Shown here piece by piece: positions 9,835 to 44,148 of a stretch of DNA of 64,000 nucleotides. How positions within the stretch are numbered: the stretch's first letter is position 1; every line of letters starts with the position of its first letter. The stretch comes from an uncultured Candidatus Saccharibacteria bacterium. GTDB taxonomy: Bacteria; Patescibacteriota; Dojkabacteria; B142; OLB20. The notes beneath the pieces are model-generated. The model had not been told where the DNA came from and ran no database searches. It saw only the letters and a list, made by a program, of their open reading frames with translations. A program made the translations under genes and the position numbers. Location of the stretch: assembly GCA_964461915.1 (NCBI GenBank), contig CAYWVD010000001.1, positions 90,211 through 154,210 of the forward strand, written 5' to 3'.

Positions 9835-9881
9835 ACTAATAAATTAATGGGTAAGAATATATGTTTGCAAAAGAACAATGA

Positions 9882-9890: not shown

Positions 9891-9928
9891 GATTCCCAGG
9901 GATTTTAAAGGACGGCTTATAGCTCCTT

Positions 9929-23420: not shown

Positions 23421-23688
23421 AATTTATAAAATAAAAATTCGAGAAAATATATTAAGGCAAATAATCTTTACCAATAAAAATATATTTATCGGCCTATTGG
23501 TATTAAATATCGCATTGATTTGGCTGATAGCGGGGACTCTTCCGATGGGCTTCAGGCTTTTGATTTCACTACTTTGTTCTGGTGTATCCCTATTAATATT
23601 CACAATGAAAATTGATGGACAATCTTTAATTAAAATATTTATTAGGATGGCAAAATTTACTTTTATAAATAAGAAATATCGCGGATGA
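23407..23688 (+). CDS. VirB3-like small 2-TM protein
   Basis: 93 aa, two hydrophobic helices, immediately upstream of VirB4. Confidence 0.4.
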   Translation: MQAIRIYKIKIRENILRQIIFTNKNIFIGLLVLNIALIWLIAGTLPMGFRLLISLLCSGVSLLIFTMKIDGQSLIKIFIRMAKFTFINKKYRG

Positions 23689-25969: not shown

Positions 25970-25982
25970 ACAATAAAATTTT

Positions 25983-28853: not shown

Positions 28854-28895
28854 TTGGTGGATTAAAAAATGTTGGAATGCGGAAATTATAAAAAA

Positions 28896-28970
28896 TCGGA
28901 GCGGAGAGACTTGAACTCTCGACCTCGCGGTCCCAAACCGCGCGTTCTAAGCCAACTGAACTACGCTCCG
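28896..28970 (-). tRNA. tRNA-Pro (anticodon TGG), no encoded CCA
   Basis: Hand-folded: CGGAGCG acceptor, anticodon stem-loop CGCGG-TTTGGGA-CCGCG, T-arm GAGAGTTCAAGTCTCTC. Confidence 0.85.
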
Positions 28971-28990
28971 AAGTGTTTTAGAACACATGT

Positions 28991-28999
28991 ATTTTATCA
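28991..28999 (-). promoter_or_regulatory. Extended -10-like TGATAAAAT upstream of tRNA-Pro
   Basis: Reverse complement of 28991-28999 reads tgaTAAAAT, about 21 nt before the tRNA 5' end. Confidence 0.25.
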
Positions 29000-29017
29000 C
29001 AAATACGTATAGAAATT

Positions 29018-30361
29018 CTATTCTGAAATTTCTTCTCGATCATCAATAACTTTTTCCTCGAAATTTTTTGGAAGTTTTTGGATCTTTTTGTTTATTGTTT
29101 TTATTGAATCTTTACCAGTTAGGCTAATCGATTTAAAGAAAGCCTTGATCGTCCTAATAATCTTTTTGAATTTAATTGTGATAAACAAGAATACATTCAA
29201 AATCTTACTCACGAGTTTGAGAACAGATGTAACTATTTGTTCTTTGAATAAGATTATGTTGTTGTAAATTAATATCGAGCCCATTCTTACTCTAACTTTC
29301 AGTTGATAGAACATATATGTTAATGTTTTATCAAAATGAGATAGGCCAGCCCAAATATTATCTAAAAATCCTAAGAATCCTTCGTTAGTGGTAGACAAAC
29401 CCGATGAAAGTTTTTCTCCAGCACCTTCCCAGTATACTTGTCCGATCTTTATATAGAGGCCGGATTTATATAAGGCTACACCAAAGAATACAAATGCAAA
29501 TCCTAATATAATAACATCCACTTCGTCACTTATTAATGCAGTAGCTGGAATTGTCGATGTAGTAGGAGTAGTGCTTGTCACAACAACTGATCTTGTAGCT
29601 GTAGGAGTCATTGTCCTAGTTGCTGTAACGGTTGGGGTATTAGTATTTGTAGGAGTAGCAGTTACTCTGCCTGTAGAAGGAGAAACTGTTATTGTAAATG
29701 TTGGACTTACAGTTGGACTTGCTGAAGGGCTAGCCGATGGAGTCCCTATTGTGGCACCCGGTGTATTGGTGGGCGTTGCAGTAGGTGTATCTGTAGCAGC
29801 TAAGGGGACACAAATACTGCAAGAAAAAGGATATTCATTAACAGAACAAGTTGCAAAATAGCTCACAAGCCGCTCGTTACCAATACATGCGACAGCTTTG
29901 AAATTAGTAATAACTCCGGTTGCCATATCCCTATATTCTTGAGGAATATATGCTGAACAATCGCATTTAAAGTCTGAGCCATCTACCCATTCAATACCTG
30001 TATCTTTATTAGCTGTATAGTTACATCTTGCCATTTTCCCAATATCTTTCGTCCCAAATTTGATTAATTCAGTATTAAACTTACAAGAATTTGTATTTTC
30101 TTTATTTGAACAAGAATCACCTGAACTTTGAGGCGCTGAACAACAATTTGATAAAGATGGAGTCGAAGATGATGTTTCGCAAGCGCAATATCCTACTGCA
30201 TTTTCAAAACAACCTGGGGGGACTAGCGCACTTGAATCTTCAGGAGCAGTTGATGGGGTCTGACTAAGTTTTATCCCTATGAATATTGCTCCTCCAGTAA
30301 TTAAAAGAGTCAATACTACAAACATAACTAAAGCAACTTTTTTATATTTAGGGTAGTTCAT
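29018..30361 (-). CDS. Type-I surface protein, paralog A: N-terminal signal/anchor, Cys-rich ectodomain, Thr/Pro linker, 'IPATALISDEVD'-TM, and a roughly 150-aa tail
   Basis: Shared N-terminal helix 'GGAIFIGIKL' and C-terminal module 'PxTALISDEVD + TM + YKSGLYIKIGQVYW' with the three upstream paralogs; 22 Cys in the ectodomain. Confidence 0.6.
   Translation of the reverse strand: MNYPKYKKVALVMFVVLTLLITGGAIFIGIKLSQTPSTAPEDSSALVPPGCFENAVGYCACETSSSTPSLSNCCSAPQSSGDSCSNKENTNSCKFNTELIKFGTKDIGKMARCNYTANKDTGIEWVDGSDFKCDCSAYIPQEYRDMATGVITNFKAVACIGNERLVSYFATCSVNEYPFSCSICVPLAATDTPTATPTNTPGATIGTPSASPSASPTVSPTFTITVSPSTGRVTATPTNTNTPTVTATRTMTPTATRSVVVTSTTPTTSTIPATALISDEVDVIILGFAFVFFGVALYKSGLYIKIGQVYWEGAGEKLSSGLSTTNEGFLGFLDNIWAGLSHFDKTLTYMFYQLKVRVRMGSILIYNNIILFKEQIVTSVLKLVSKILNVFLFITIKFKKIIRTIKAFFKSISLTGKDSIKTINKKIQKLPKNFEEKVIDDREEISE
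29577..29800 (-). repeat. Imperfect tandem codon repeats encoding the Thr/Pro/Ser/Ala linker of paralog A
   Basis: Periodic gt(t/a)gg(a/t)g(t/g)... units; the antisense strand gives a spurious VGV ORF. Confidence 0.5.
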
Positions 30362-30363
30362 TT

Positions 30364-31815
30364 TTAATCCTTATTAACGACTTTTTGAGAATTAATTACT
30401 TCTTCTTCAAATGATTTTGCCTTACGGATCTTAATTGATTTTAAAGAGGCAGAAATTTTGAAGATTATTGTTTTACTAATTCTTTTAACAAAGATCAATG
30501 TATTCAATAAACCTAAGATAATTTGATTTTTAATTCCAGACAATTTATTAAATACAAATTTAAAGCTGTAAACAATATTAAGACCGATTTTTTTGAAACT
30601 CATGATTAGTGAAGTCTCAAATTCTTTTATAGAACTGAAAAGTGAATTCGATCCTTCTTTCAAATCCTCGGATACATTTAAAATGCCGGATGAAACATTC
30701 TTACCTCCGTTATTCCAATAAAGTTGGCCTATTGAAATATACAAGCCTGATTTGTAGATAAATCCGCCGGTAATAACTAACAATAAACCGAATACTATTA
30801 AATCAACTTCATTACTGATAAGAGCAGTAGGAGGAAGTATTGTCCCAGTAGGAGTATTTGTTACAGTCCTTGTAATAGTTCCGGTAGGAGTTCTTGTAAG
30901 AGTTCCTGTTGGAGTGTTTGTTGGTGTCCTTGTGGGAGTATTGGTTGGTGTGTTGGTAGGTGAATTTGTAATAGTTAATGTACCAGTAGGTGTATTTGTT
31001 GGAGTGTCAGTCGGTGTTGGGGTTATAGTAGTACCGGCGGGTACACAGGAGCAAGGATTTTCACCTGGTTCTAGTACTTCTCCGGGATCACAAGCAGTCT
31101 CTACCAATTGACACATTCCTTCGGACCCATCAGGATTAAGGTCATAATCAAAATCACATTCATAGTTGGGATTAATATTTTTACATTGGGCATCTTCGGT
31201 ACAAATTCCGGAGTTACAAGCAAGTGGTTCGGGTTCTTCTTTACAAATATCAAGGTTGCCAGTGTAGCCGGATAAGAAACATTCTGGAGCTACATCACCA
31301 TCAAATTCAACATCAATTTGTTGAAAATTACACCAGTCTCTTTGTAAACAAATTTGATAAACTGATTCTCCGGTATAAAATTCAGGATTAGCATCTCCAC
31401 TTGGATTTACCCATCTTGGAGTTATGTTTTGGATATGTGGGGCTGGATTATTTTTCCAACTTGATCGATCTGAACAATTCTGAGGAGTACCGCCGGGGCA
31501 GCTACATCCTTGACCATTAACGCTCCAATCGCCATCACAAAAGTGACTAGCAAACTGACTCGATGATCCATTTAAAAGATATCTATAATTACTTTTTACT
31601 TGAAGACAAACTGTCTCATCACGAAATACTAATTCACACTGTTTTGGGTCAGAGGGGCCGTATTGATAAATAATACCGTTATAAGTAGCAGCAGATACAT
31701 CGTCAGGTGTTACATCAGGTTGCTGTCCTAACTTTATACCAATATATACTGCTCCGCCTCCTATGATTATTGTAGCTAATATTAGGGCAAGTGCTATAAA
31801 TCTTTTTCTATTCAT
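30364..31815 (-). CDS. Type-I surface protein, paralog B (483 aa): large Cys-rich ectodomain, (TPTNTPT)n linker, 'LPPTALISNEVD'-TM, tail
   Basis: Same architecture and C-terminal module 'YKSGLYISIGQLYW'; about 30 Cys; 2-nt gap to paralog A. Confidence 0.6.
   Translation of the reverse strand: MNRKRFIALALILATIIIGGGAVYIGIKLGQQPDVTPDDVSAATYNGIIYQYGPSDPKQCELVFRDETVCLQVKSNYRYLLNGSSSQFASHFCDGDWSVNGQGCSCPGGTPQNCSDRSSWKNNPAPHIQNITPRWVNPSGDANPEFYTGESVYQICLQRDWCNFQQIDVEFDGDVAPECFLSGYTGNLDICKEEPEPLACNSGICTEDAQCKNINPNYECDFDYDLNPDGSEGMCQLVETACDPGEVLEPGENPCSCVPAGTTITPTPTDTPTNTPTGTLTITNSPTNTPTNTPTRTPTNTPTGTLTRTPTGTITRTVTNTPTGTILPPTALISNEVDLIVFGLLLVITGGFIYKSGLYISIGQLYWNNGGKNVSSGILNVSEDLKEGSNSLFSSIKEFETSLIMSFKKIGLNIVYSFKFVFNKLSGIKNQIILGLLNTLIFVKRISKTIIFKISASLKSIKIRKAKSFEEEVINSQKVVNKD
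30841..31035 (-). repeat. Tandem imperfect 18/21-nt repeats encoding TPTNTPT/TRTPT units
   Basis: Visible periodicity (ggagt(a/g)tt(t/g)gt(t/a)gg...). Confidence 0.55.
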
Positions 31816-31885
31816 TATTATTTCGTAAAAAGTTTTTTAAATATTAATATATTTATAATCAGTATAAGTAATTTCTTCTAAGAAA

Positions 31886-32722
31886 TTAATCGATTTTTGA
31901 CATTTTCTTATCAAATTTGCTTCTATCTTTGTCATACTTCCCTTTAAAGAATCCATCTTTTAAAACAGCCGAGTAAAAACCATTCCTTCCTAAATTGAAT
32001 AAAAATTCGCCTAATTTAATGGTATATCCCGATTTAAAGATTCCGAAACCTAATAATAATAGAGCTCCACCAATTAAGATTCTATCTACCTCATCCGAAA
32101 CTAATGCAGTTGGTGGTAAAGGACTTGAAGTCACTGTTGATGGTGGAACTGAAGTGCTAATAGGTGGCTTTGTAGTTTTTGGAGGAACAGTAGTTGTTGG
32201 AGGGACAGTAGTTGTTGGAGGGACAGTTGTTGTTGGAGGAACTGTAGTCACTGGTGGTTTAGAACATTTACATGTAAAAAGCTGACCGCAATTATCACAG
32301 GTTTGAGTTATAGTGTTTGTCCCGCCTTCGTTTCCGATTCCATCCAGGCAATCCTCTTCGCACTGAGCTTCATCACAACCGCAGGTACCCCAAGTAACTC
32401 CATCATCAGCTAAATAACAACGAGGATCATTATTTGTTTGAGAGGTTCTCCCAAAAGCGCAATAATAGCCACCTTTTGAAGAGTTATACCAGCATCCTGT
32501 CATGTGCTCATTTGGTGGATTTCCAATTTTATTACAGGTTTTTCCGCTACCTCCACGGCCTGTACAGGTCTCGTTTGACCAGATAATGTCAGAGGGAGTT
32601 GCAGCAGAGGCATTTTCGGGGCTGGTATCAACTGTAGCTAACTTTGCGCCAATATATATAGCAATTCCAGATAAAACTATCATAAAGCCGACTAGTATGT
32701 ATATGACTACTTTTTTATTCAT
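31886..32722 (-). CDS. Type-I surface protein, paralog C (278 aa): Cys-rich domain, (TTVPP)n linker, 'LPPTALVSDEVD'-TM, short tail
   Basis: Shares N-terminal 'GIAIYIGAKL' and C-terminal 'FKSGYTIKLGEFLFNLG' with its paralogs. Confidence 0.6.
   Translation of the reverse strand: MNKKVVIYILVGFMIVLSGIAIYIGAKLATVDTSPENASAATPSDIIWSNETCTGRGGSGKTCNKIGNPPNEHMTGCWYNSSKGGYYCAFGRTSQTNNDPRCYLADDGVTWGTCGCDEAQCEEDCLDGIGNEGGTNTITQTCDNCGQLFTCKCSKPPVTTVPPTTTVPPTTTVPPTTTVPPKTTKPPISTSVPPSTVTSSPLPPTALVSDEVDRILIGGALLLLGFGIFKSGYTIKLGEFLFNLGRNGFYSAVLKDGFFKGKYDKDRSKFDKKMSKID
32164..32252 (-). repeat. Four to five near-perfect 18-bp tandem repeats (ggagg(g/a)ac(a/t)gt(a/t)gt(t/c)(g/a)(t/c)t) encoding (P)TTVPPT repeats
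   Basis: Directly visible tandem units at 32181-32252. Confidence 0.7.
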
Positions 32723-33662
32723 CTTTATCTTTAATAATATTATTTTCGAATTTTAAGTTTTTATTTCCTTTAAACTTGGAAAGAATGTTAATGTATAAAT
32801 TTTCTAGACCTAAATTCCATAGTAGTTGTCCGATCTTTTCATCATAGTTTTTCTTAATAAAAATAATTCCTATGAAAATCAAAACTGATCCACCAACTAT
32901 AAAGACAATTTGATTACCATCTAAGTCGGTGCATGGAATTATCTCGATTTTCATGGTGTGTGTTATTGTCTCTAGAGTAGATGTGTTTTGATGAGCTGAT
33001 ATTGTTGAAATATATGATTTTCCATTTTCGCTTGTTGGGACTATTGCTTCGTATGTTAATTCAACTTTCCCATTATTTGCCTTTATTGATAAATCTGTCC
33101 ATTCAATGTCTTTACCTGATAATTTACCATTATTAGAAATCTTATTATTTGTAAGATATTTAACATCAAATTCATTTGCCAGTTTTTCAATTAATTTAAT
33201 ATTGGTTAAATCTGATTGGCCTTTATTAATTAAAGTTATCACAATATTGATCTTGGTGCCATTTGCAGAACATGCAAAACTTGCTTCTTTAGCAATTGAT
33301 AAACTTGATTTAATCGTACAAAGATCGTTATTGCAAAGATTATTAAGCGTTAGAGGTGAAGTAGTTTTGTTTATACAAACATCTAATACGCATCGCTTAC
33401 TCGCATTCACTGAAATACAGGTTGAACCGGCTTGGCAGGAACTATCAGTGCAAGGAGATCCGCATGCAACAGCAGGCTTTAATGTCGGAGTTGGTGTTGG
33501 GGTCCTTGTTATTGATTGGCTGGGAGAAATGAAGATTGTTGGAGTAGGGGTAACTGCCGGTGTTTTCTTTTTTGATAAATTATACCCAAGATAAAGGGTA
33601 ATACCACCCAGAATAATAGTAATGATAAATAGTATTATTACTGTTACCTTCTTAGAGTTCAT
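32715..33662 (-). CDS. Type-I surface protein, paralog D (315 aa): N-terminal Thr/Pro linker, Cys-rich region, beta-rich repeat-like domain, 'IPCTDLDGNQ'-TM, tail 'KIGQLLWNLG'
   Basis: Divergent member; conserved N-terminal helix 'GGITLYLGYNL' and C-terminal 'KIGQLLWNLG'; overlaps paralog C by 8 nt. Confidence 0.5.
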   Translation of the reverse strand: MNSKKVTVIILFIITIILGGITLYLGYNLSKKKTPAVTPTPTIFISPSQSITRTPTPTPTLKPAVACGSPCTDSSCQAGSTCISVNASKRCVLDVCINKTTSPLTLNNLCNNDLCTIKSSLSIAKEASFACSANGTKINIVITLINKGQSDLTNIKLIEKLANEFDVKYLTNNKISNNGKLSGKDIEWTDLSIKANNGKVELTYEAIVPTSENGKSYISTISAHQNTSTLETITHTMKIEIIPCTDLDGNQIVFIVGGSVLIFIGIIFIKKNYDEKIGQLLWNLGLENLYINILSKFKGNKNLKFENNIIKDKDE

Positions 33663-33682
33663 TAAACAAACTTGCCAATTAA

Positions 33683-35149
33683 TTAAGCATTAATAAAAAT
33701 ATTAATATAATTTAAAGAACATAACAAATATATTGAAAATAAAATTATTAAAGCTATTGAAATCCTTTTCATTACTCTTAAGAAGTATTCTTTTTCCTCA
33801 GACAGGGTAAGGAATTGGGTTGCTTGAGTAGAAAAATTGCATTCTTTTCCATCCTTAGTAAATACTTTTTCAATGATTAGTATTAAAGAAGCGGAAGCGG
33901 ATAAGGCTATCAGAGGGAAAATTGAAGAGGACGATGAAAGAATATAAAACAAGAAAATATTGATGATTAATATTGTTAAAGTTTTAAACAGAATCCTGGC
34001 TTGTACATTCATAATTCTTTTTAAAATTTGAAGAGAATGTTTGGCAAAAAAGAATCCGATTAGTCCAAGGGCAAGAAATGGCACAAGTCCGTATGCATTT
34101 ATAAATTGAAAAAGCAATGGCACTGGAACAGTATTTGTTAAACCTCTTCCAAGGAATATACTAACACCATGTAATTCTGAAAGACTAGCAAATCCGTTAT
34201 AAATAAAATAGTAATCGTTTACATTAGGGATTTTTATAATCGAATAAATCCCTACAGCTATAAGAATTAAAGTAATGATCAAAATTGAAATGTTCAGATT
34301 CTTTGAGATTGATTCATAAATGTTTTTCTGTTTTTTATCTATATTTTTAAACATTTTAGCTAAAGAATCTCTCTTCGAAATTATTAATGTTAAAAAAATT
34401 ATAAATAAAGTGATTATTGATACTAATATATTAATCGGGTTATAGAAGTATAAAAGACAGAATAAGCTTATTAAAAGATTTATTCCATTTAAAATATCAA
34501 CCTTAGGCTTTGATTTACCTGAAAAATTGACATAAAAAGACCAAATCAATTGAGCCGGAAATAAAATTGTTAAGAATTCTATTGCTGAATTTGAGATTTG
34601 AAGGTTGAATAGAATAATTAAAATGAATGATATCAGGGGCGAAACTTTGAACGCATTGATCATCCGGCGTATTGAAAGCTTTGATTGATTGTTAATATAG
34701 AAAAAATAATAGATCAAAGAAATTGATATAATTGATACGCCGGAAATGGCGTTTAAAGAAGGCCCGCCCCAAATATTTGTATTTGTTCTAACAATGGCAG
34801 TGTTATAAAAAAATGATAAGGCAATTAATGTTGTGAAAATTAATATCGGAATATCAAGTGGAATACCCAAAAAGTGCGGGCCTTTAACAGTTAAAACCCT
34901 CAAGATTTGTATAACAAAAAAGATAATTGCTAGACCATAGATCAGGATATTTAATACAGATAGATTATTTTGGTCTGTAAGGCTAGGTAGTAAAAAAAAT
35001 AATAATGCAATGGCTATTGAAAAGTTTCGCCCCACAAAATCCAATAAATTTATCGCTTTTTTTGCTGGCTCTTTAAATGAATTCTTGTCTGGGATAGTTA
35101 AGTTTAATTTGTATTTAGGGGTAATACTTATGCTAATTTTCCTAGCCAT
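33683..35149 (-). CDS. Polytopic membrane protein (at least 10 TM), possibly Wzy_C/O-antigen-ligase-like; first gene of the surface-protein operon
   Basis: 488 aa, almost entirely hydrophobic helices with one larger loop containing 'SELHGVSIFLGRGLTN'. The family assignment is a guess from topology and this loop. Confidence 0.35.
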   Translation of the reverse strand: MARKISISITPKYKLNLTIPDKNSFKEPAKKAINLLDFVGRNFSIAIALLFFLLPSLTDQNNLSVLNILIYGLAIIFFVIQILRVLTVKGPHFLGIPLDIPILIFTTLIALSFFYNTAIVRTNTNIWGGPSLNAISGVSIISISLIYYFFYINNQSKLSIRRMINAFKVSPLISFILIILFNLQISNSAIEFLTILFPAQLIWSFYVNFSGKSKPKVDILNGINLLISLFCLLYFYNPINILVSIITLFIIFLTLIISKRDSLAKMFKNIDKKQKNIYESISKNLNISILIITLILIAVGIYSIIKIPNVNDYYFIYNGFASLSELHGVSIFLGRGLTNTVPVPLLFQFINAYGLVPFLALGLIGFFFAKHSLQILKRIMNVQARILFKTLTILIINIFLFYILSSSSSIFPLIALSASASLILIIEKVFTKDGKECNFSTQATQFLTLSEEKEYFLRVMKRISIALIILFSIYLLCSLNYINIFINA

Positions 35150-35190
35150 TTGGTATAATTAACGAGTGAAATATTTATTAGTTTAGCAAT

Positions 35191-35199
35191 TGGTATTAT
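35191..35199 (+). promoter_or_regulatory. Extended -10-like TGGTATTAT upstream of folD
   Basis: tggTATTAT, 12 nt before the proposed ATG at 35211. Confidence 0.25.
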
Positions 35200-35210
35200 T
35201 ATATTCAAGT

Positions 35211-36059
35211 ATGGAAATTTTAAACGGTATTGAATTATCTGAAAAATTATTAGCTGAATTAAAACCGGCTGTTGATTCTTTCGCTTTAAAGCCAAGATTA
35301 GATATTGTGTTTATTGGCCAAAATGAGGCCAGTCAAGTTTATGTTAACAAAAAAATTGCTGCTGGAGAATTTTTGGGTATAAAAGTTGTTGTCCATTCGT
35401 TTTTAAAATCAACTACCGAAGAGATTCTCGAACTTGTAAAAGCTTTAGCAAACGATTCAGAAGTGCATGGGATTATTATCCAATTACCTGCTCCTGATAT
35501 TGATACTGAAAAGATTTTCCCATTGATTCCTGTTGAAAAAGATGTTGATGGTTTAAACCCAAAGACCTTGGGTAATATTTATCATGGAGATTTAAGTATT
35601 GTTCCTGCAACTGTGCGCGGAATAATTTATGTATTTGAACACATTGCACAAAAACAAAACCTCAGTCTAAAAGATTTCTTATCGGGAAAAAATGTCTTAA
35701 TTGCAAACAGATCTTTGATAATTGGAAAACCCCTAATGGGTGTTTTGAATAAATATAATGCAACTTGTACGATGGCGCATTCTAAAACTGAAAATATTAA
35801 TGATTTTGTCGGCGCCGCAGATATTATAGTTCTAGGTACCGGTTCAAAGGTTGAACTTGATTATTCACTGTTTAAAAAAAGCGTCGTATTAATTGATGCG
35901 GGTTTTAATAAAAAAGGCAAAAAGATTGAGGGGGATGTTTCAGCAGAAAAATTAAACCAAAATGTAGCATTTTTATCTCCAGTCCCTAATGGGATAGGAC
36001 CTCTCGGAGTCGCCTTTTTGCTAATAAATACTTTTGAAGCTTTCAAAAAGCTCTCTTAA
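35211..36059 (+). CDS. folD: Bifunctional methylenetetrahydrofolate dehydrogenase/methenyl-THF cyclohydrolase; start at the Met of MEILNG
   Basis: 'ASQVYVNKK' (active-site Lys region), 'GIIIQLPAP', 'DVDGLNP', 'PATVRGI'. Confidence 0.85.
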   Translation: MEILNGIELSEKLLAELKPAVDSFALKPRLDIVFIGQNEASQVYVNKKIAAGEFLGIKVVVHSFLKSTTEEILELVKALANDSEVHGIIIQLPAPDIDTEKIFPLIPVEKDVDGLNPKTLGNIYHGDLSIVPATVRGIIYVFEHIAQKQNLSLKDFLSGKNVLIANRSLIIGKPLMGVLNKYNATCTMAHSKTENINDFVGAADIIVLGTGSKVELDYSLFKKSVVLIDAGFNKKGKKIEGDVSAEKLNQNVAFLSPVPNGIGPLGVAFLLINTFEAFKKLS

Positions 36060-36087
36060 ATAATTCGTACCCAATCTTTAAATGGTT

Positions 36088-38205
36088 TTATAATTTGCAC
36101 TCGTAGATCACAGAGTCATTTGATCTAAATGATTCGGTGCAATATTGCTTAATGATATCAGTACTAAGGTCTGTATAAGTTTCCCGTTCTTTATCACCAA
36201 CTACGATATATTTAACGAAATATTTTTTTACAATTTTCAAAAAATCGTCTTTTGATTCTGTTGTATAGATATCTTTAAGTTCTTCTTTTCTAGCATTAAT
36301 CTCGTCAATATTGCTTCGCCATTGCCATTCATGCGTGGGCCAGCCAATAATATCGGTTAATCCTGTATTTGCAGAGATTCTGCAATAGTAGGTGTAAGCA
36401 TCGCCAACTGCTTCAGCAATCACTGCTTGTCCAGTAACATTGGTATTAATCCAATTGATCATGGCATAATCTTCTGGGTAAAGCTTTTTAATATATGCAT
36501 TACCATCGATCGTATCATAAAGCTTGAGGGTCTTATCGCCATTTAATAGTTGATCGAAAGAGAAGTTTTTTCCGTCTTCAAATTTGAAAAATGAATAAAA
36601 ATCATTCAAAGCTTCAAAAATGTACGAAAAAGAAGATACAAAAACAATCAATATCACCAACCCATTAATCGCTAATAATAAAAAGCCGTTTTTAAGAGGT
36701 GTGGTGTAGATTTTACGGGAAATGGCATTTATAAAATAAAAGCATGAGATGAAAAATATAGGCCATGCTGCAAAGTAGAATTTAAAGACTGTATTTGTTC
36801 GAAAATAGGGTGGATTAGCTTGATCAAAAAGATCTTTTACATAAAGTATTTCGACTCCAATTATAAGGGCAAATGCAGCAAATCCCAATAGAAAAGCAAA
36901 GATCGAAACATCGTTTTCCTTAATTAAGCTCTTAATGTGGTTTTTAATATTCGAAGCTTTAGACTTCATTAGAACCAAATATGAAATCCCAACTGTAAAA
37001 ATGATCGACAATTGGGCGCCCCACATCAATAACCATTCTTTAAGATCTCGTTCAGTATTAAGTGGAACAAATCCTATACCTCCCACGGCAGGTTTAAAAT
37101 TGTAGAAGTATGGAGCCATAAAGATCAATCCGGGAAGTAAAAGAGTAGTTTCTAAAATCAAAAGCGTGACCAATTTCTTTTTTAATTCACCTTCAAACAT
37201 TAAAAATTGGACAAAGTTTATTAGTAAAAATAGAAAGTTTGCAGTAATAAAATCCCAACTATTGATTCCATACAAAGCAACTAGTGGAACTGATAAAAAG
37301 AGCATCATTTCAACTCTTTCCTTGGAATTAAATTTTGTATGCCATATGTTGTACAAAAAGGCCACCATCATTACTAAAAATGGGAATCCGATGAAATGGC
37401 CATGAAGATCGCCTAAGATAATTGAATATGCAGGGAATTCATTTATAACAAAGGGAATAGTCCTTGTTGCATCCGGGAACCAATATGAAAAATTCTCATG
37501 ATTAATAAATGCTTCTAATAATTTGTAAATGTAATGGAAGTTACCCCCAAAACAAATTAATGTAGCACCCATTAAAGCAATTACGCCTGACCATTTTTTC
37601 AAAGAAGCTTTTGTAAGCTGGAAAATTATTGCAAAACTAGCGATAAAACCATAAGAAATTATTGTATTCAGACCGAAGTTGTATGCAAAAGAAATTGGGA
37701 TCGAGCCGATCTTGGCAACAAAAGTGTATAAATAATGTCCAATATAATAATAATTAATCGACGATCCTGCGAACCACATATCTGATGGGGGCATAAATTC
37801 TGTTCTATTTATTGAATTCATAAAAGCAATATTCATGAATTTTTCAGTACCCTCGACTTGTGCATTTGTAGATTTAATCAGATTCCAAAGGACGAAAATG
37901 AACAAAAAAACGAGTTCTTCTTTAAGCATTGTTTTAGTGAACTTAAACTTGCTTTTCATTAAACGATAACCGGAAAATGCAAGCAGAATAACAAAGACTA
38001 TTAGGGAACTCCATTCTGTAAATGGTATTAATTTTATAGAACTAAATATCCATAAGATGAGGCCTGAAATTAGGAAACCTAGAAATTTAGATATTGCATA
38101 GCCTTTATCGAACCATTTTCTAAAATATTTTTCACCAAATCCCAAACCAATAACATTAAAACACAAAAATACCAGATACCAAATAATCATGTATTTTAGT
38201 TCCAT
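36088..38205 (-). CDS. Large polytopic membrane protein with a YYYxG motif (Chlor_Arch_YYY/DUF2298-like; putative GT-C-fold glycosyltransferase) and a C-terminal soluble domain
   Basis: 705 aa, more than 12 TM helices, 'SSINYYYIGHYLYTF' motif, C-terminal extramembrane domain of about 200 aa. Confidence 0.5.
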   Translation of the reverse strand: MELKYMIIWYLVFLCFNVIGLGFGEKYFRKWFDKGYAISKFLGFLISGLILWIFSSIKLIPFTEWSSLIVFVILLAFSGYRLMKSKFKFTKTMLKEELVFLFIFVLWNLIKSTNAQVEGTEKFMNIAFMNSINRTEFMPPSDMWFAGSSINYYYIGHYLYTFVAKIGSIPISFAYNFGLNTIISYGFIASFAIIFQLTKASLKKWSGVIALMGATLICFGGNFHYIYKLLEAFINHENFSYWFPDATRTIPFVINEFPAYSIILGDLHGHFIGFPFLVMMVAFLYNIWHTKFNSKERVEMMLFLSVPLVALYGINSWDFITANFLFLLINFVQFLMFEGELKKKLVTLLILETTLLLPGLIFMAPYFYNFKPAVGGIGFVPLNTERDLKEWLLMWGAQLSIIFTVGISYLVLMKSKASNIKNHIKSLIKENDVSIFAFLLGFAAFALIIGVEILYVKDLFDQANPPYFRTNTVFKFYFAAWPIFFISCFYFINAISRKIYTTPLKNGFLLLAINGLVILIVFVSSFSYIFEALNDFYSFFKFEDGKNFSFDQLLNGDKTLKLYDTIDGNAYIKKLYPEDYAMINWINTNVTGQAVIAEAVGDAYTYYCRISANTGLTDIIGWPTHEWQWRSNIDEINARKEELKDIYTTESKDDFLKIVKKYFVKYIVVGDKERETYTDLSTDIIKQYCTESFRSNDSVIYECKL

Positions 38206-39527
38206 TTGTTAGAAGAAATTATGTTAAATAATTCATTAGCTTGGGCAATAGCATAATTTGTGCCTCGATCATGCGGGAAGATCTGGGCAAAGTGAGCAAA
38301 AAGTAAACCATTTTGTCCTGATTTATATGATAGTATCTCGAAGTCGGTTGTTGCAATATGTTGGGCTTCAGGTGATTTAAAGAATTCAACGGATTCGATC
38401 TCCTGCTCATTAAATGCTGGGTTGATCTTTTTTAAATATTCAATGCATTTTTTTAGAAGTTCCTCTTTTGTCGATTTAAATAATTCTGAATTATTATCCG
38501 TGTATTTACCCAAATAAACTATTGTCTTATTATTGAATTTTGATTTTTCAATAAAATTCGTATGCTCAACCAAAGCCACAAATGGAGACTTTGTATCGTT
38601 TACGCTTGTCCAATAGAATTTACTTAAAGAGTTTTTTAGTGTCAAAATAAAACAATAGGCGCCAATAAATTTAATCTTTTTCAGTTTATCAGCATATTTT
38701 TTCGGTGGATTAAAAATCTGGATAAAGTGTTTTGGTGGTATAGTCGAGACAATAATATCAAACTTTTTTGTGACGGACTTATTTGCGTCGCCAGATGTAA
38801 ATTCAATTCTATGAGTGTCTTTAATCCTAGTATAGTTTGTAATTGACGAGTTTTTATAAATCTCTCCCCCTTGTTCAATTATCTTTTTTTCAAGACTATT
38901 AATCAGTTTATTGAAACTGCCGTCAATATATCCGAGTTTTTCATCCTTTGTGGGGAAATCTCTAGAACTTGATCTATCATGGATTCTTGTCCAAAACCAA
39001 GTCATAGCAATGTTTTTGTATTCACCTTCAAATTTTGATTCCAGCAAAGGCTTCCACATAACGGCTGTGACTGTTTTTCCGAAATATTTATTGCACCAAT
39101 CAAATGCAGTCCATTTTTCAAATTGCTTGATATTTTTTGTCTTTTGTAGATAGAAGCTGACAAGACCAAGTCTTAGCCTATTAAAAATATTTAATTTAGG
39201 GAAGGTCAGAATGTCTAATGCAGATGAGAATGTTAAAAGAGATTTGCCATCAAATAAGCCCATTTTGCTAGGTATCCATTGAATCGCATCTCCAATATTT
39301 AATTCGGTGAGTAAATTTTGTAAATCTATATCGCTTTTAAAGAAGTGATGGTAATATTTTTCTATGGGTTGATTTTCAATTTTTAAACCTGAAGCCAAAC
39401 CACCTAAAATGGGGGATTTTTCGATTATACTGACGATGAATCCGTTTTTTGATAGTCTGTATGCCAACGTAAGGCCCAAAATCCCGCCCCCGATGATTCC
39501 TATGGTAGGTAGTTTTGACTTTTGCAT
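38196..39527 (-). CDS. FAD/NAD(P)-binding oxidoreductase (amine-oxidase/protoporphyrinogen-oxidase-like fold)
   Basis: N-terminal 'IGIIGGGILGLTLAYRL...GGLASG' dinucleotide-binding motif; 443 aa; 10-nt overlap with the downstream YYY gene. Confidence 0.6.
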   Translation of the reverse strand: MQKSKLPTIGIIGGGILGLTLAYRLSKNGFIVSIIEKSPILGGLASGLKIENQPIEKYYHHFFKSDIDLQNLLTELNIGDAIQWIPSKMGLFDGKSLLTFSSALDILTFPKLNIFNRLRLGLVSFYLQKTKNIKQFEKWTAFDWCNKYFGKTVTAVMWKPLLESKFEGEYKNIAMTWFWTRIHDRSSSRDFPTKDEKLGYIDGSFNKLINSLEKKIIEQGGEIYKNSSITNYTRIKDTHRIEFTSGDANKSVTKKFDIIVSTIPPKHFIQIFNPPKKYADKLKKIKFIGAYCFILTLKNSLSKFYWTSVNDTKSPFVALVEHTNFIEKSKFNNKTIVYLGKYTDNNSELFKSTKEELLKKCIEYLKKINPAFNEQEIESVEFFKSPEAQHIATTDFEILSYKSGQNGLLFAHFAQIFPHDRGTNYAIAQANELFNIISSNKWN

Positions 39528-39550
39528 TTATATAGATTTAAAAAATCAAT

Positions 39551-39580
39551 TTGCTATAAAGAAGAATCATATCATATCAT
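39551..39580 (+). promoter_or_regulatory. Candidate promoter TTGCTA-N18-TATCAT for glyA
   Basis: Hexamers at 39551-39556 and 39575-39580, about 25 nt before the ATG. Confidence 0.25.
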
Positions 39581-39604
39581 AATTTATACTTTAAATTTTT
39601 CAAA

Positions 39605-40963
39605 ATGAATACAGCAAAACTACAAGATCGAGATCCAGAAGTAAATTCCTTAATAGAAAAAGAATCCGAAAGACAAAGAACACATTTATCTTTAATTCCA
39701 TCTGAAAATATTTTTAGCCCTGCAGTTAGAGAGGCAGTTGGCTCAGTGTTTATGCAGAAGTATTCAGAGGGTAATGTCGGAGCAAGATATTACGAGGGGA
39801 ATGAATTTGTTGATGAACTCGAAAGATTAACAATGGATCGAGCTCGCAAACTTTTTAATCTTCCTGATGATTGGAGCGTCAATGTACAGGCATTAGCTGG
39901 AAGCAATGCGAATATTGCAGTATATCTTGGTATACTTCCGCCGGGTTCAACAATTCTATCGATGTATTTACCCGATGGTGGGCATTTATCACACGGCTGG
40001 TCATATTCGCCCCAAAAAGATAAAACATCTGTAAATGCTGAAGTTTATCTAGGTGGAACAAAAAAAGTTAACATTTCTTCGAGACTTTACAATATAGTCC
40101 AATACAAAACCGATCCAAAAACGCATTTATTTGATTACCATCAAATTCAAAAACTAGCTCAGGAGCACAAGCCCAATCTCATAATTACCGGTGGGACAGC
40201 TTATCCAAGAGATATTGATTACAAAAAGATGAAGGCGATAGCCGATTCTGTTGGCGCCTTGTATATGGCTGATATTGCTCATGAGGCAGGTTTAATTGCT
40301 TCTTCAGTCTTGAATTCTCCCGTTGGCATAGCCGATGTCGTCACGATGACTACCCATAAGACTTTACGATCAGGTCGTGGTGCAATAATTTTAGGCAAAA
40401 AAGACTTAATTAAAAAAATTGATAAAGGGGTTTTACCAGGGTTACAGGGTGGCCCATTCAATAATAATATAGCAGGAATTTGTGTAGGATTAGGCGAGGC
40501 TTTACAAAGTGATTTTAAAATTTATGCAAAAGCAGTTATTGATAATGCAAAAGTCCTTGCTGAGGCACTTAAAGGATACGGATTTGATTTATTAACTGGC
40601 GGTACCGATAAACACCTAATCCTAATTAATATGACCAATAAGGGAATCTTTGGGAAATATACTGCTAGAGCCCTAAATTATGCAGGTCTAGTGTGTAATA
40701 TGAACACAATGCCACAAGAAAATCGATCCCCAGCAGATCCATCTGCAATTCGTTTGGGGACTCCATCCGTCACAACTAGAGGTTTAAGAGCCAACGAAAT
40801 GAAGCTCATAGCCAAATGGATAAATTCGGTTGTTGAAGAAATTAAACCATGGGCAGAATTAGACTTCGAATCTTTTCAAGAAAAAGTTAAAAGCTCCTCG
40901 ATAATTCTTGGAATCAATAAAGAAGTAGAAGCACTTTGTGAAAAGTTCCCGGTCGGATTTTAA
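39605..40963 (+). CDS. glyA: Serine hydroxymethyltransferase
   Basis: 'SLIPSENIFSPAVREA', PLP-Lys motif 'VTMTTHKTLRSGRGAII'; 452 aa. Confidence 0.9.
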   Translation: MNTAKLQDRDPEVNSLIEKESERQRTHLSLIPSENIFSPAVREAVGSVFMQKYSEGNVGARYYEGNEFVDELERLTMDRARKLFNLPDDWSVNVQALAGSNANIAVYLGILPPGSTILSMYLPDGGHLSHGWSYSPQKDKTSVNAEVYLGGTKKVNISSRLYNIVQYKTDPKTHLFDYHQIQKLAQEHKPNLIITGGTAYPRDIDYKKMKAIADSVGALYMADIAHEAGLIASSVLNSPVGIADVVTMTTHKTLRSGRGAIILGKKDLIKKIDKGVLPGLQGGPFNNNIAGICVGLGEALQSDFKIYAKAVIDNAKVLAEALKGYGFDLLTGGTDKHLILINMTNKGIFGKYTARALNYAGLVCNMNTMPQENRSPADPSAIRLGTPSVTTRGLRANEMKLIAKWINSVVEEIKPWAELDFESFQEKVKSSSIILGINKEVEALCEKFPVGF

Positions 40964-41505
40964 ATTGAGGTCGCAATAGATTCGATCTTCCAAGATCCTT
41001 CAGATTTACCAAGTGTAATAAATCTTGTATTTTGGCCTTGATCCCATATAGGTTCATGAGCATTGGGTTTAAATTGGATATTGATCTGAACCTCAAACAT
41101 TGGGTTCTTTTTATCAGATTCTTCCGTTAGTCTATTTATGCTTATTACTTCAACTTTCTCGAAATGAGAAAATGTAACTCCATAAGCTTGAAGAATTGAA
41201 TTTAATTGTGGGGGCTCTTCACCAACTAGTTTTGTACTCAAGAGATTAAGTGCTAGCCCAATTTCGTCCTTATCTAAATATTCGAAGAACATTCTTACCG
41301 TATCTTCATCTGAATTGTCAGTTGTTGTAGTTACTGTAGTAGTGGGAGATGCTTGAACTTCTTCGCTACCATTATATAAATGATTCAAGTTTTGATCGAA
41401 ATCATTTGAAGACTTGGTCTGTTGATTAATTACAACAATAATAAGCGCTATTAAAAGAATTAGGGGGATAAATCCTATAGCAAAAATCATAGTATTTTTA
41501 TTCAT
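40960..41505 (-). CDS. Hypothetical membrane-anchored or secreted protein (N-terminal TM, poly-Thr spacer, about 110-aa alpha+beta domain)
   Basis: ORF with N-terminal hydrophobic helix and 'TTTVTTTTD' spacer; no family recognised. Confidence 0.4.
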   Translation of the reverse strand: MNKNTMIFAIGFIPLILLIALIIVVINQQTKSSNDFDQNLNHLYNGSEEVQASPTTTVTTTTDNSDEDTVRMFFEYLDKDEIGLALNLLSTKLVGEEPPQLNSILQAYGVTFSHFEKVEVISINRLTEESDKKNPMFEVQINIQFKPNAHEPIWDQGQNTRFITLGKSEGSWKIESIATSI

Positions 41506-41535
41506 GATTTGCCAACTTGTATGTTTGATTATATA

Positions 41536-42036
41536 TCAAAAGTTCGTTGAAATGAAAGCATCGCAATTTATATCAAAAGGTCTTACGCCAGTTACTTGTC
41601 CCGAAGCCCTCCATAAAAAATGAGTTCCATTAGCTCCAAGATTTTCAATTGTATATCCCAATTGAACTTTTAAGATTTCTTGCATTGGAATTAAATTCTT
41701 TGAAGTCCATCTGGAGTATTTAACTCCCCGGTCTGATGAAGTGATTGCAACATCGCTAGTAAAAAAAGTTAAAAAGCCACCATCGCCCACATGGCTATAG
41801 ATTGTATTAACAGCCGCAGCCCATAGTATTCGGCCTAAATGCTGATTCCTGTTCGCAAAATCTAATCTAAAAAAAGTCCTCCAATATTCTGATATATCAT
41901 TTAATTCAGGGTATAAATATGATATGGGAATAGAATCTCTATAGAAATTAGCTTCCCCTAAAAATTTCCCATCACCTTGAAATTGATAACTTATTCGTCC
42001 TAATGGGTCAGTGATTTGTGATGGAATTATATGCAT
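41536..42036 (-). CDS. Small GNAT-like protein, paralog 3 of a tandem triplet
   Basis: Aligns by eye with 42754-43290: 'QHLGRILWAAAV' ~ 'LHKGIGVYAWAL', 'YSRWTSKNLIPMQEILKV' ~ 'YTNWSSKQINFMHSLLSV', 'THFLWRASGQ' ~ 'EHIIWEALNG'. Confidence 0.45.
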   Translation of the reverse strand: MHIIPSQITDPLGRISYQFQGDGKFLGEANFYRDSIPISYLYPELNDISEYWRTFFRLDFANRNQHLGRILWAAAVNTIYSHVGDGGFLTFFTSDVAITSSDRGVKYSRWTSKNLIPMQEILKVQLGYTIENLGANGTHFLWRASGQVTGVRPFDINCDAFISTNF

Positions 42037-42053
42037 CCCTTATGAAGTAAAAA

Positions 42054-42215
42054 TTATATTTGGTCTTGAATAACTAATGGGTATTCAGAATAATCACTAT
42101 CAAAATGTGCAGAATATCTTGCAACTCGGGCTATTTTACCATTAGGATTAAATGAAAGTATATCCACATGTGGATAGTTAAAGTCTTTTGTGTCAGGTAT
42201 GCCAAATATTTTCAA
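42054..42215 (-). pseudogene. Remnant N-terminal fragment (about 53 codons, no ATG) of a fourth paralog of the GNAT-like family
   Basis: Translation '(L)KIFGIPDTKDFNYPHVDILSFNPNGKIARVARYSAHFD...' parallels 'MRIFGIPIQSEKAVNPMSTIAIADQNGELVGRFDAFVS' of 42754-43290 and ends at a TAA 18 nt before paralog 3. Confidence 0.35.
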
Positions 42216-42254
42216 TTTAAAAATATATTAAAGTTAAATATAAAAAAGTTAAAT

Positions 42255-42731
42255 TTAATTCCCCCAGGCATTAGATAAATCACATGAACGAACTTGTCCT
42301 TGAGTACCCCAAAACCACCAATGCGAGCCGTAATCATTTACACCAGAAATAAATTGGTTAATTCTGAGTCCGAAAAATTTCACCAGGTTTTGTTGCACAT
42401 CACCAATATGTTTTGTAGTCCAATTATTATCAGATGCATCTACTGTGAAAAAATATGATTCCTTAAGTTTTCTGTCGTATAGTAATTGGGCTATAGACTT
42501 AGACCATAATGGGACTCCATATCTTTGCCCGGGCTGCTGAATGTCGAGAAATCCTTGCCAGACATGCGGTTCCTGTAACATACGGTATGCTAAATCTAGA
42601 TATGAATTATAGCTAGGTCTTAGAGGAGTTTGCCAAAAAGTCATAGAACCAATTTCTAAACCTTTGTCGTCAATGTATTTATATTTCGAAACACTTTTTG
42701 TCATAACTTCTTTTTTTGGAATCAAAATCAT
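42255..42731 (-). CDS. Small GNAT-like protein, paralog 2
   Basis: 'QRYGVPLWSKSIAQLL' and 'NWTTKHIGDVQQNLVKFFGL', 'SHWWFWGTQGQ' correspond to the conserved blocks of paralogs 1 and 3. Confidence 0.45.
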   Translation of the reverse strand: MILIPKKEVMTKSVSKYKYIDDKGLEIGSMTFWQTPLRPSYNSYLDLAYRMLQEPHVWQGFLDIQQPGQRYGVPLWSKSIAQLLYDRKLKESYFFTVDASDNNWTTKHIGDVQQNLVKFFGLRINQFISGVNDYGSHWWFWGTQGQVRSCDLSNAWGN

Positions 42732-42753
42732 AATAAACGCATCAAATATAATA

Positions 42754-43290
42754 TTAAATATCTAAGTAAAAATGATCATTTTTAAAATTCTCAGAGCTCC
42801 CTGACCTTGGTATCGGTCCATTTAGAGCTTCCCAAATAATATGCTCGCGGCCTTCATAATCATCTTCCCAAAATCTATTTACTGAAATATCAAACTTAAC
42901 ACTAAGTAAGGAATGCATAAAATTAATTTGTTTACTTGACCAGTTAGTGTATGGACCAAAAGGTTTTAATTTATCTTTAGCTTGATCAATTGTATAAAAA
43001 ACCTTAGTTAAACCAGATTGAGATTTCAAAAGGCCCACAACTCCAAGTGCCCATGCGTATACTCCAATCCCCTTGTGTAAATAAGGGGCTTCAAGTTCAA
43101 CATGTGAAATCCAGGCCCCATTTTGAATCAATTTATCATATATTCCACTTGGGTAAACAAATGGCGAAAAACTTCTTGAAACAAAGGCATCAAATCTCCC
43201 AACAAGTTCACCATTTTGGTCAGCTATCGCAATGGTTGACATTGGGTTAACTGCCTTTTCACTTTGTATTGGTATGCCAAATATTCTCAT
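42754..43290 (-). CDS. Small GNAT-like protein, paralog 1 (178 aa)
   Basis: 'ISHVELEAPYLHKGIGVYAWALGVVGLL' resembles GNAT motif A (h-V-x-x-x-x-R/K-G-x-G-x-x-L). Confidence 0.45.
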   Translation of the reverse strand: MRIFGIPIQSEKAVNPMSTIAIADQNGELVGRFDAFVSRSFSPFVYPSGIYDKLIQNGAWISHVELEAPYLHKGIGVYAWALGVVGLLKSQSGLTKVFYTIDQAKDKLKPFGPYTNWSSKQINFMHSLLSVKFDISVNRFWEDDYEGREHIIWEALNGPIPRSGSSENFKNDHFYLDI

Positions 43291-43374
43291 TCGAAATTAT
43301 ATCATAGATATATACCAATTTTAAACCCACTTTTTCTACTTTACAAAAAAAAATCATCGTGTAACAATTTAGCT

Positions 43375-44148
43375 ATGAATCTAATTGCTATAGCAAAAGC
43401 GTTGGGTGTTGATGATATTACATCTCCGACTATTCCTTTTGTCCCTCCAACGGGGACTGTTACTGGTTTACCTACTACCACCGATAGTCCAACAACTGGG
43501 GCGAGTATCTCATTAAAGGCCGATGTAACAAGTATTAAGAAAGATACAGAAACTGATATCAGTGTCATCATATTCAGTAATTCGGAGGAGATAAAATCTT
43601 TAAAATTTACAGTTTCTTATGATCCCAATATTTTTGAAATAGTTGATGGTAGCGATTCTGAAGCTGGTGTTCAAATCCATTATTTAAATTCTTTTTTTGT
43701 AACAAGTAAAAATTCAGTTGATACAGTTAATGGAATAATAACACTTGAAGCAGGTTCCCAAACAGGTACAGCTACTATTAGCAATAGAACAATAGCAAAA
43801 ATCAAAGTTAAGGCCTTAAAAGATGGAATCGGTGAGTTTCGAGTAGTTAAAGATCAATCAAATCTTTTGAAAAGTGATGGGACAAATGTCTTGGTTCAAA
43901 TTCAGGGTGTTACTTTGAGAGTTGGAGAAGGTCAGTTGACTGGGACTCCGAGTGTTAGTACTTCTGTAACTGGTAGCACTACTGGATCTCCCACTGGAAG
44001 TGATATTCAAAAGCCCTTTGATAAGACTCCGGATACTGCTCTATTTGATACACCAGGGAGTATATCGGCTGTGGTTGGGGGTCTTTTCTTGATTGTCACT
44101 GGAATATATTTATACAAGAAGAAGGGTAGCCATGATTTACAGCGCTGA
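43375..44148 (+). CDS. Secreted surface protein with a beta-sandwich (cohesin-like?) domain and a C-terminal 'TPDTALFDTPG'-TM-KKKGSHDLQR sorting-signal-like tail; start taken at the Met of MNLIAIAKALG
   Basis: Thr/Pro/Gly linkers around a roughly 140-aa domain (FTVSYDPNIFEIV...GIITLEAGS); C-terminus = motif + hydrophobic helix + basic tail. The upstream 37 codons of the tracked ORF overlap the convergent gene, so they were excluded. Confidence 0.4.
   Translation: MNLIAIAKALGVDDITSPTIPFVPPTGTVTGLPTTTDSPTTGASISLKADVTSIKKDTETDISVIIFSNSEEIKSLKFTVSYDPNIFEIVDGSDSEAGVQIHYLNSFFVTSKNSVDTVNGIITLEAGSQTGTATISNRTIAKIKVKALKDGIGEFRVVKDQSNLLKSDGTNVLVQIQGVTLRVGEGQLTGTPSVSTSVTGSTTGSPTGSDIQKPFDKTPDTALFDTPGSISAVVGGLFLIVTGIYLYKKKGSHDLQR

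Follow-up and report, generated by a model that had tools for sequence, protein, structure and literature searches.

A P-x-T-A-L motif opens a conserved C-terminal anchoring module of Dojkabacteria surface proteins that resembles a sortase wall-anchoring signal

Bacteria of the Candidate Phyla Radiation (CPR, or Patescibacteria) live attached to other cells, and to our knowledge almost nothing is known about how they display proteins on their surface. Gram-positive LPXTG proteins have wall-spanning regions that are rich in Thr and Pro and lie before the motif, and pentapeptides with Ala at position 5 also occur: the signal of Bacillus anthracis SrtC reads LPNTA, and TIGR04383 ('processed acidic surface protein') is the LPXTA family of NCBIfam. 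Among the enzymes of other C-terminal sorting systems, exosortases and archaeosortases use a Cys-Arg-His catalytic set, and rhomboids and rhombosortases a Ser-His set. LPXTA signals are known in Bacillus (PMC3617157), and a sortase is present in more than half of CPR genomes (PMC6744442). Our literature search for sortases in Dojkabacteria (candidate division WS6) gave only this CPR-wide statement, and none of the titles found on LPXTG in Patescibacteria or the Candidate Phyla Radiation dealt with CPR sorting signals. Here we describe a P-x-T-[AD]-L motif in five proteins encoded on a 64-kb stretch of contig CAYWVD010000001.1 (positions 90,211 to 154,210; hereafter the window). We have found that the motif is real and that it opens a strongly conserved C-terminal anchoring module of Dojkabacteria surface proteins, which looks like a relative of the Gram-positive sortase wall-anchoring signal.

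The five proteins, here called A to E, are encoded by four tandem minus-strand genes (A-D) and a single plus-strand gene (E). Protein A (447 aa, 29018..30361) consists of an N-terminal signal-anchor, a Cys-rich ectodomain, a Thr/Pro linker and a C-terminal module (29399..29551) that runs from IPATAL (29534-29551) through ISDEVDV and a transmembrane (TM) helix to YKSGLYIKIGQVYWEGAGEK. Protein B (483 aa, 30364..31815) has a similar architecture, its module (30685..30837) being composed of LPPTAL (30820-30837), ISNEVDL, the TM helix and YKSGLYISIGQLYWNNGGK. In protein C (278 aa, 31886..32722) a folded Cys-rich domain precedes the module (31970..32119), which reads LPPTAL (32102-32119), VSDEVDR, TM helix and FKSGYTIKLGEFLFNLGRNG. 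Protein D (315 aa, 32715..33662) has a DUF11/CLIPPER-type domain followed directly by a divergent subtype of the module (32793..32939), in which IPCTDL (32922-32939) and DGNQIVF stand before the TM helix and IKKNYDEKIGQLLWNLGLEN. The cohesin-like protein E (257 aa, 43375..44148) ends in a short version of the signal (44026..44145), made up of TPDTAL (44026-44043), FDTPGS, a TM helix with the spacing Gx6Gx3Y and the basic tail KKKGSHDLQR. The positions and sequences agree with those of a preliminary description of this DNA, which had reported the five reading frames and the motif just before a hydrophobic helix. It had also considered all five proteins extracytoplasmic; A-D begin with a putative export signal, a basic stretch followed by a 22-residue hydrophobic helix, and the location of E is discussed below.

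The placement of the motif is far from what composition alone would give. The amino-acid composition of the roughly 70 window proteins (20,618 residues) predicts 0.44 occurrences of P.T[AD]L, and seven were observed. Five of the seven occurrences lie directly before a C-proximal TM helix and the other two in proteins with no predicted TM helix, while all five window proteins that combine an ectodomain with a C-proximal TM helix have the motif. Even with the composition of a Thr/Pro-rich linker, one hit within 12 positions upstream of the helix has a chance of 0.0003-0.01 in each protein. Since A-D are paralogs they count as one event, and E is the independent test, with a chance of about 0.001.

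The family to which A-D belong is considerably larger than the window. A word-indexed protein search with the module profile returned nothing beyond a fragment of D, and a full HMMER scan of 1.84 billion cluster representatives with a profile built from the 56 C-terminal residues of A-D found the long module in 113 clusters (50% identity) at E <= 1e-3, 34 of them at E <= 1e-10. The module was proximal to the C-terminus in every match. Its roughly 50 residues follow the consensus [LI]-P-x-T-A-[LI]-[IV]-[ST]-D-[EQ]-x-D-R, then a helix with G-x6-G-x3-Y, then [KR]-[S]-G-x-[YH]-x-x-[IL]-G-x-[LF]-[FL]-W-N-x-G-G-K, so that the motif of A-D forms its leading edge. Among the 113 sequences Pro is conserved in 106, Thr in 109, Ala in 105, Leu or Ile in 112, the two Asp residues in 102 and 100, the two Gly residues in 110 and 100 and Trp in 91. 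A further element, [KR]-x-[FY]-E-x-[KR]-hydrophobic, is located 5-15 residues before the C-terminus in about 89 of the 113 and is seen in A-D as KNFEEKVI, KSFEEEVI, SKFDKKM and LKFENNI. The ectodomains joined to the module include DUF11, DUF7927, laminin-G, an isopeptide-forming fimbrial domain and 'choice-of-anchor Q', most having no Pfam match, and in some six or seven full-length members an ordinary Sec signal peptide takes the place of the family N-terminus; with such unrelated ectodomains and N-termini, the module is portable. The suggestion that the motif is a conserved, lineage-specific signal extending beyond four paralogs was thus borne out. The named genomes with the module are all Candidatus Dojkabacteria (WS6), a range that is a lower bound because the related-locus search, made with a 12-sequence subset of the module, finds only the exact peptide TALISDE[VA]D. 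The long module is uncatalogued in Pfam-A and NCBIfam, where no model covers it; the best match was a weak one (E 0.21) to the LPXTA end of TIGR04383.

Several features of this family are shared with sortase signals, as represented by the NCBIfam LPXTG_anchor model TIGR01167 and by the LPXTA variants. In both, [LIT]-P-x-T-[A/G] with a free X stands a few residues before a C-terminal helix, a Thr/Pro-rich stalk precedes the motif, as in the window proteins, and the ectodomains are unrelated; the short basic tail of the E type is a further likeness. In 105 sequences aligned on the Thr the information content is 2.8 bits for L, 3.9 for P, 1.0 for X, 4.0 for T, 3.9 for A and 3.7 for L, and the linker upstream carries about 1 bit per column, so that conservation sets in abruptly at L-P. 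By its sequence this is the pattern of an LPXT[GA] sortase pentapeptide, with L/I, P, T and A conserved and X free. In the window IPATA, LPPTA, LPPTA and TPDTA agree with [LIVT]-P-x-T-[G/A/N] and D reads IPCTD; in all five proteins the spacer between motif and hydrophobic helix is 6-8 residues long, inside the roughly 10 residues of sortase signals.

The short signal of E brings the comparison closer. Both E and its ortholog in locus L007 match the long-module HMM over positions 2-31, and PxTAL together with Gx6Gx3Y[KR] is common to the two versions. Pro, Thr, Ala and Leu are invariant in seven E-type sequences down to 38% identity, while the flanking linker varies. E ends right after KKKGSHDLQR and is the only window protein with a short positive tail. 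When isolated E-type C-termini were scanned with TIGR01167, whose curated cut-off is 15.9 bits, the orthologs scored 14.1, 15.6, 16.6, 18.9, 21.9 and 23.2 bits and one was unmatched, so that four of eight E-type C-termini (16.6-23.2 bits) exceeded the cut-off. In the ortholog from L020, TPRTG takes the place of TP[DK]TAL, and an exchange of Ala for Gly at position 5 would be expected if the segment were a sortase pentapeptide. This TPxTA/TPRTG switch, the scores of the E-type termini and the conserved L/I, P, T and A around a free X all uphold the LPxTA-like pattern noted in the preliminary description. Peptidoglycan machinery is also present, namely a Mur ligase, an LCP protein and an M23 peptidase, which counts in favor of sortase-type processing.

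The predicted structure of C indicates where such a motif would stand. In an AlphaFold model built from a 20-sequence alignment (mean pLDDT 74.5), an N-terminal helix (residues 3-30) and a confident small Cys-rich domain (47-154) are followed by a disordered Thr/Pro linker, in which LPPTAL (residues 202-207) is modelled as coil with pLDDT < 50. The TM helix (210-230) starts at DEVDR (D210), three residues past LPPTAL, and two predicted cytoplasmic helices follow (233-254 and 259-277). Since LPPTAL is modelled as coil above the helix, it is probably accessible as a linear motif, and the segment is predicted to be disordered and exposed just outside the membrane. A fold search of the confident ectodomain against the PDB gave no match below E = 1.

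On this basis, sortase-type processing of the P-x-T-[AD]-L signal is the best reading, although we hold it tentatively, at somewhat less than an even chance. The motif would be the exposed recognition element of a C-terminal sorting or anchoring signal specific to Dojkabacteria (WS6) that comes in two versions. The short one, seen in E, would be an LPXTG-class anchor with a shifted pentapeptide: [TI]PxT[A/G], 6-8 residues, TM helix and basic tail. The long one, in A-D and more than 100 other clusters, would read [LI]PxTA[LI]-[IV]SDExDR, TM helix (Gx6Gx3Y), [KR]SGxYxxIGxxFWNxGGK, a variable spacer and KxFE+x-hydrophobic. An N-terminal signal would export the precursor, and the C-terminal helix would halt transfer and keep the unstructured LPxTA some 7 residues outside the membrane. 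There a transpeptidase of the sortase class, whose gene would lie in another part of the genome, could cut between Thr and Ala (or Gly) and link the Thr to the wall, which the Thr/Pro stalk would then span. The conserved helix and tail of the long version may act before or during cleavage as retention or recognition elements, probably with the ~11-TM membrane protein described below. By analogy, the module may work like an LPXTA sortase signal and be recognised likewise, and TILPPTALISDE, KTPDTALFDT and ELPQTGAP are candidate sortase-substrate peptides. We infer the export of E, the existence of a sortase, the cleavage and the wall linkage.

A number of observations weigh against this reading. 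The sortase with a TLxTC catalytic motif to which the preliminary description had looked did not appear. None was found in the window, its 20-kb flanks or about 400 kb of fetched loci, whether as TLxTC (strict or relaxed), as a Pfam Sortase domain or by phmmer similarity to Staphylococcus aureus SrtA, and in ten contigs or genomes none was found in the +/-10 kb around the module locus; as the fetched loci are mostly the same syntenic Dojkabacteria region, and the window and its flanks are part of a genome of about 0.8 Mb, this is absence of evidence only. The A-D form lacks two defining features of the LPXTG class. Their tails are 70-180 residues long, with about 45-145 residues beyond the TM helix, where a short basic tail would be expected (20-180 residues family-wide, against 5-10 basic residues in sortase signals), and TIGR01167 gave no match to A-D; as classical sortase substrates these proteins did not hold up. 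No long-module sequence has Gly at position 5, which also sets it apart from LPXTG signals. To the pentapeptide the long version adds L-I-S-D-E-x-D-R, conserved equally well over the seven residues that follow and atypical of sortase substrates, a TM helix with fixed glycines, a conserved cytoplasmic segment of about 25 residues and the FE motif. The tail is under specific conservation (W 91/113, G 100/113, terminal FE about 89/113), and since a discarded sorting remnant would not be expected to stay conserved, this speaks against cleavage. The earlier caveat that the conserved tail of A-D is unlike that of classical substrates was therefore correct and can be put more strongly, as the tail holds two further conserved motifs. 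E itself scored 14.3 bits, below the TIGR01167 cut-off, and its N-terminus (MNLIAIAKALG) holds no recognisable signal peptide, so that its extracytoplasmic status is only inferred. The start codon of E was confirmed by an in-frame stop just upstream in the L020 ortholog, and a promoter-like TTTACA-17-TAACAAT lies 6 nt before the ATG, which fits a leaderless transcript, as that of E appears to be. With this score and no recognisable signal peptide, the description of E as a textbook tripartite signal of motif, helix and basic tail is not supported.

Beside E, an ApbE flavin-transferase gene is always found on the 3' side with a slight overlap (window 43375-45121, plus strand; L007 9844-11464; L020 1-928), and its product likewise has no obvious signal peptide. 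E-type proteins contain the invariant peptides IAKALGxDDxTSPTIPF, at the N-terminus, and G-[ST]-A-T. The conserved adjacency suggested E as a substrate for flavinylation by ApbE; this idea was set aside, as G-[ST]-A-T resembles but does not match the target motif D-x-x-[ST]-G-A-[ST] (PMC12052999).

Alternatively, the anchor is never cut, which we consider possible though rather doubtful. The C-terminal helix would then be a permanent bitopic anchor with a cytoplasmic tail for docking to a partner in the cytoplasm or the membrane, and LPxTAL-ISDExDR would be an extracellular juxtamembrane linear motif that binds the ~11-TM membrane protein or packs with the conserved N-terminal helix. Sequence-specific selection on the tail ([KR]SGxYxxIGxxFWNxGGK, with the terminal KxFE+x-hydrophobic in about 89 of 113) fits this proposal, as do the small-residue motifs in both TM helices (GGxAxYxG in the N-terminal and Gx6G in the C-terminal one), the unbroken conservation from pentapeptide to helix and the lack of a sortase in the fetched DNA. 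A permanent anchor leaves unexplained the LPXT[A/G] pattern with its free X, the TPxTA/TPRTG swap and LPXTG-anchor scores of the E type, and a literal LPxTG next to the N-terminal helix of 12 members. Pairing with the N-terminal helix is moreover not obligatory, because some six or seven members carry cleavable signal peptides of the ordinary kind.

A partner for such a tail could be sought in the one conserved genomic neighbor of the module genes, which the preliminary description had not noted. Immediately upstream of A-D lies the gene of an unannotated 488-aa membrane protein with about 11 predicted TM helices (33683..35149, minus strand), and its ~485-aa orthologs are followed by one to five module genes on the same strand, with short intergenic gaps, in ten contigs or genomes (the window, L011, L012, L014, L015, L016, L020/21, L023, L032 and L033; L027 is a duplicate of L011, and L014 is a close relative of L016). 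The locus is made up, in order, of an FAD amine-oxidase-like gene (missing in L014 and L016), DUF2298, FolD on the opposite strand, the ~485-aa protein and the module genes; serine hydroxymethyltransferase (SHMT) lies upstream wherever the locus extends far enough, with the exception of L033. The adjacency agrees with an uncleaved anchor bound to the membrane protein, but because the whole region (SHMT, FolD, DUF2298), with its housekeeping genes, is syntenic across the lineage, it may be partly inherited gene order. The orthologs are 19-40% identical; the protein has only four database homologs and no relative in Pfam, NCBIfam or the PDB. The AlphaFold model was unusable (pLDDT 43.6), and hhalign profile comparison with the neighboring DUF2298 protein and with STT3 showed no similarity. 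Invariant in 11 orthologs are K89, D99, T106, S112, W127-G128-G129, S139, Y148, P198, G334, G336 and G354, and no Cys, His, Arg or Glu is invariant. From sequence and position the 488-aa protein is a candidate partner or processing factor of the module.

Were this protein itself the processing or attachment enzyme, the locus would parallel the exosortase, archaeosortase and rhombosortase systems (PEP-CTERM, PGF-CTERM, GlyGly-CTERM, IPTL-CTERM) through an unrelated chemistry. Such systems likewise join a lineage-specific motif and TM domain to many unrelated surface proteins, and like those of the PEP-CTERM type the present locus has the gene of a polytopic membrane protein beside the substrate genes. 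The operon order is kept in the ten contigs or genomes despite the low identity of the membrane proteins, the partner family has no known relatives, K89, D99, T106, S112, WGG 127-129, S139 and Y148 could build a catalytic or binding site, and a conserved TM helix and tail would suit recognition by an intramembrane machine. Nonetheless, we regard a non-sortase system of this sort as unlikely. The Cys-Arg-His and Ser-His sets are absent, as is that of a metalloprotease, and with no invariant Cys, His, Arg or Glu the protein was rejected as an exosortase, archaeosortase, rhomboid or zinc protease. There is no support from fold, given the poor model and the empty profile comparison, the E-type proteins have the motif outside this operon, and a glycosyltransferase acting on the Thr/Pro linkers, or a scaffold, would be an equally good assignment for the partner. 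In PEP-CTERM-type systems, unlike in the long module, the motif stands directly at the helix and a short, Arg-rich tail follows, and no NCBIfam CTERM model (PEP-CTERM, PGF-CTERM, GlyGly-CTERM or similar) matched A-D. The E-type TM helices gave sub-threshold matches to PEP_CTERM and Loki-CTERM, the former reaching 13.1 bits against a cut-off of 16 in one sequence.

The N-terminus of these proteins is also conserved, and in some of them it repeats the pentapeptide. A family signal-anchor, M-x-K-K ... L-T-x3-G-G-x-A-x-Y-I-G-x-K-L, is present in 82 of 112 module proteins and within the window in A-D only (30218-30361, 31681-31815, 32588-32722 and 33528-33662, minus strand). Most members have [ST]-P-[ED]-[DE]-x-x-A at a fixed 8-11 residues past the conserved core of this helix. 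In 12 of the 112 (P0034, P0038, P0050, P0062, P0069, P0073, P0076, P0081, P0093, P0099, P0107 and P0116) and in three L012 paralogs (7168-7965, 7971-9173 and 9242-10456), a literal (E)-L-P-[QTE]-T-G replaces it in the same register, and a folded domain follows immediately. True orthologs of C align S-PENASAATPS with LLPQTGAP--S. With LPxTG at one end in 12 of 112 members and LPxTA at the other, the family appears to use a sortase-type pentapeptide twice. Signal peptidase I is a possible reader of P-[ED]-[DE]-x-x-A: Ala at -1 and S/A/I/T/V at -3 fit this enzyme, but the site lies 12-15 residues past the 22-residue helix. A comparable arrangement is found in the streptococcal M26 IgA1 metalloproteases, whose LPXTG lies near the N-terminus next to membrane-spanning segments (PMC9637739), as it does in the 12 module proteins. 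The order in M26 is signal peptide, LPXTG and TM helices, whereas in module proteins the N-terminal helix comes before LPxTG; also unlike M26, most module proteins read P-[ED]-[DE]-x-x-A at that site and have a second pentapeptide, LPxTA, at the C-terminus.

The two sites raise the thought that a sortase-type transpeptidase might cut both ends, the N-terminal one at LPxTG or P-[ED]-[DE]-x-x-A and the C-terminal one at LPxTA, which we consider very improbable. The ectodomain would be freed from both membrane helices, and its exposed N-terminal Gly or Ala would resolve the C-terminal Thr acyl-enzyme of another or the same molecule, giving head-to-tail covalent fibres or cyclised surface proteins assembled on the 11-TM protein as a platform. 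Adhesins went undetected in a survey of the type IV secretion systems of Patescibacteria (PMC12102498); A-D-type proteins are candidates for them, and double-cut fibres, if they are made, could supply the adhesins missing from this essential system.

That the motif is a relic of recent paralogs with no dedicated function, its presence in E being coincidental, is effectively refuted and has a negligible probability: A-D are indeed tandem paralogs and a P/T-rich linker raises the odds of P-x-T, but P, T and A are kept in 106, 109 and 105 of 113 clusters (50% identity) with unrelated ectodomains and an unconstrained adjacent linker, P, T, A and L do not vary among E-type sequences at 38% identity, and chance would place the motif before the helix of E with a probability of only about 0.001.

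Irrespective of how the signal is read, the module HMM provides a sequence handle on the surface-protein repertoire of an entire lineage, and the module delimits a conserved operon that includes an orphan 11-TM protein. Under sortase-type processing the module suggests that sortase recognition logic, LPxT plus a small residue, has been extended by a conserved helix and a cytoplasmic tail; cleavage, if true, would widen the range of sortase signals and offer a new ligation motif. If cleavage is excluded, the module would represent a bitopic bacterial anchor of a new type, with a docking tail in the cytoplasm.

The window has a G+C content of about 33% and contains a ribosomal-protein operon, a Mur ligase, SHMT, FolD and a small type IV secretion cluster. 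Its gene order is common to genomes named Candidatus Dojkabacteria or candidate division WS6, with SHMT identities of 60-68%. The same DNA is carried by a 121-kb Logan contig, and exact protein E was found on an 808-kb contig. The type IV secretion-like cluster (21213-26696, plus strand) is convergent to the A-D cluster and encodes a TrbC/VirB2 pilin (21213-21548), a 6-TM VirB6-like protein (21549-23420), two small proteins, a VirB4/TraG-like ATPase (24197-25969) and an M23 peptidase (25983-26696). Type IV secretion genes stand beside the module cluster in three genomes; they directly adjoin the module genes in L011 and L012 and do not in L014, L020, L023, L032 and L033.

The Thr/Pro linkers of A-C and E are plausible candidate targets for glycosylation. 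An STT3-type oligosaccharyltransferase gene is cut by the start of the window (8-1189, plus strand), and upstream of this gene L018 (1-9954) holds several glycosyltransferases, GtrA and an LCP (LytR_cpsA_psr) protein. The polytopic DUF2298 protein is encoded at 36088-38205 (minus strand), two genes off the module operon.

Strain-level insertions and deletions distinguish the window from L001 (Logan contig ERR3438382_802) at 41536-43290 (minus strand) and 28853-29018. In the former, genes of 166, 158 and 178 aa with no Pfam match correspond to one 108-aa gene in L001. In the latter, L001 has three additional genes (67 aa, a GNAT acetyltransferase and a CntK_N protein) between A and a pyrimidine-dimer glycosylase gene, an interval of 165 bp in the window. 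Long antisense reading frames rich in V, G and L (29571-29861, 31995-32285 and 33106-33594, plus strand) lie opposite the Thr/Pro-linker codons of A, C and D; these are mirror-image artefacts of the repetitive ACN and CCN codons and not genes.

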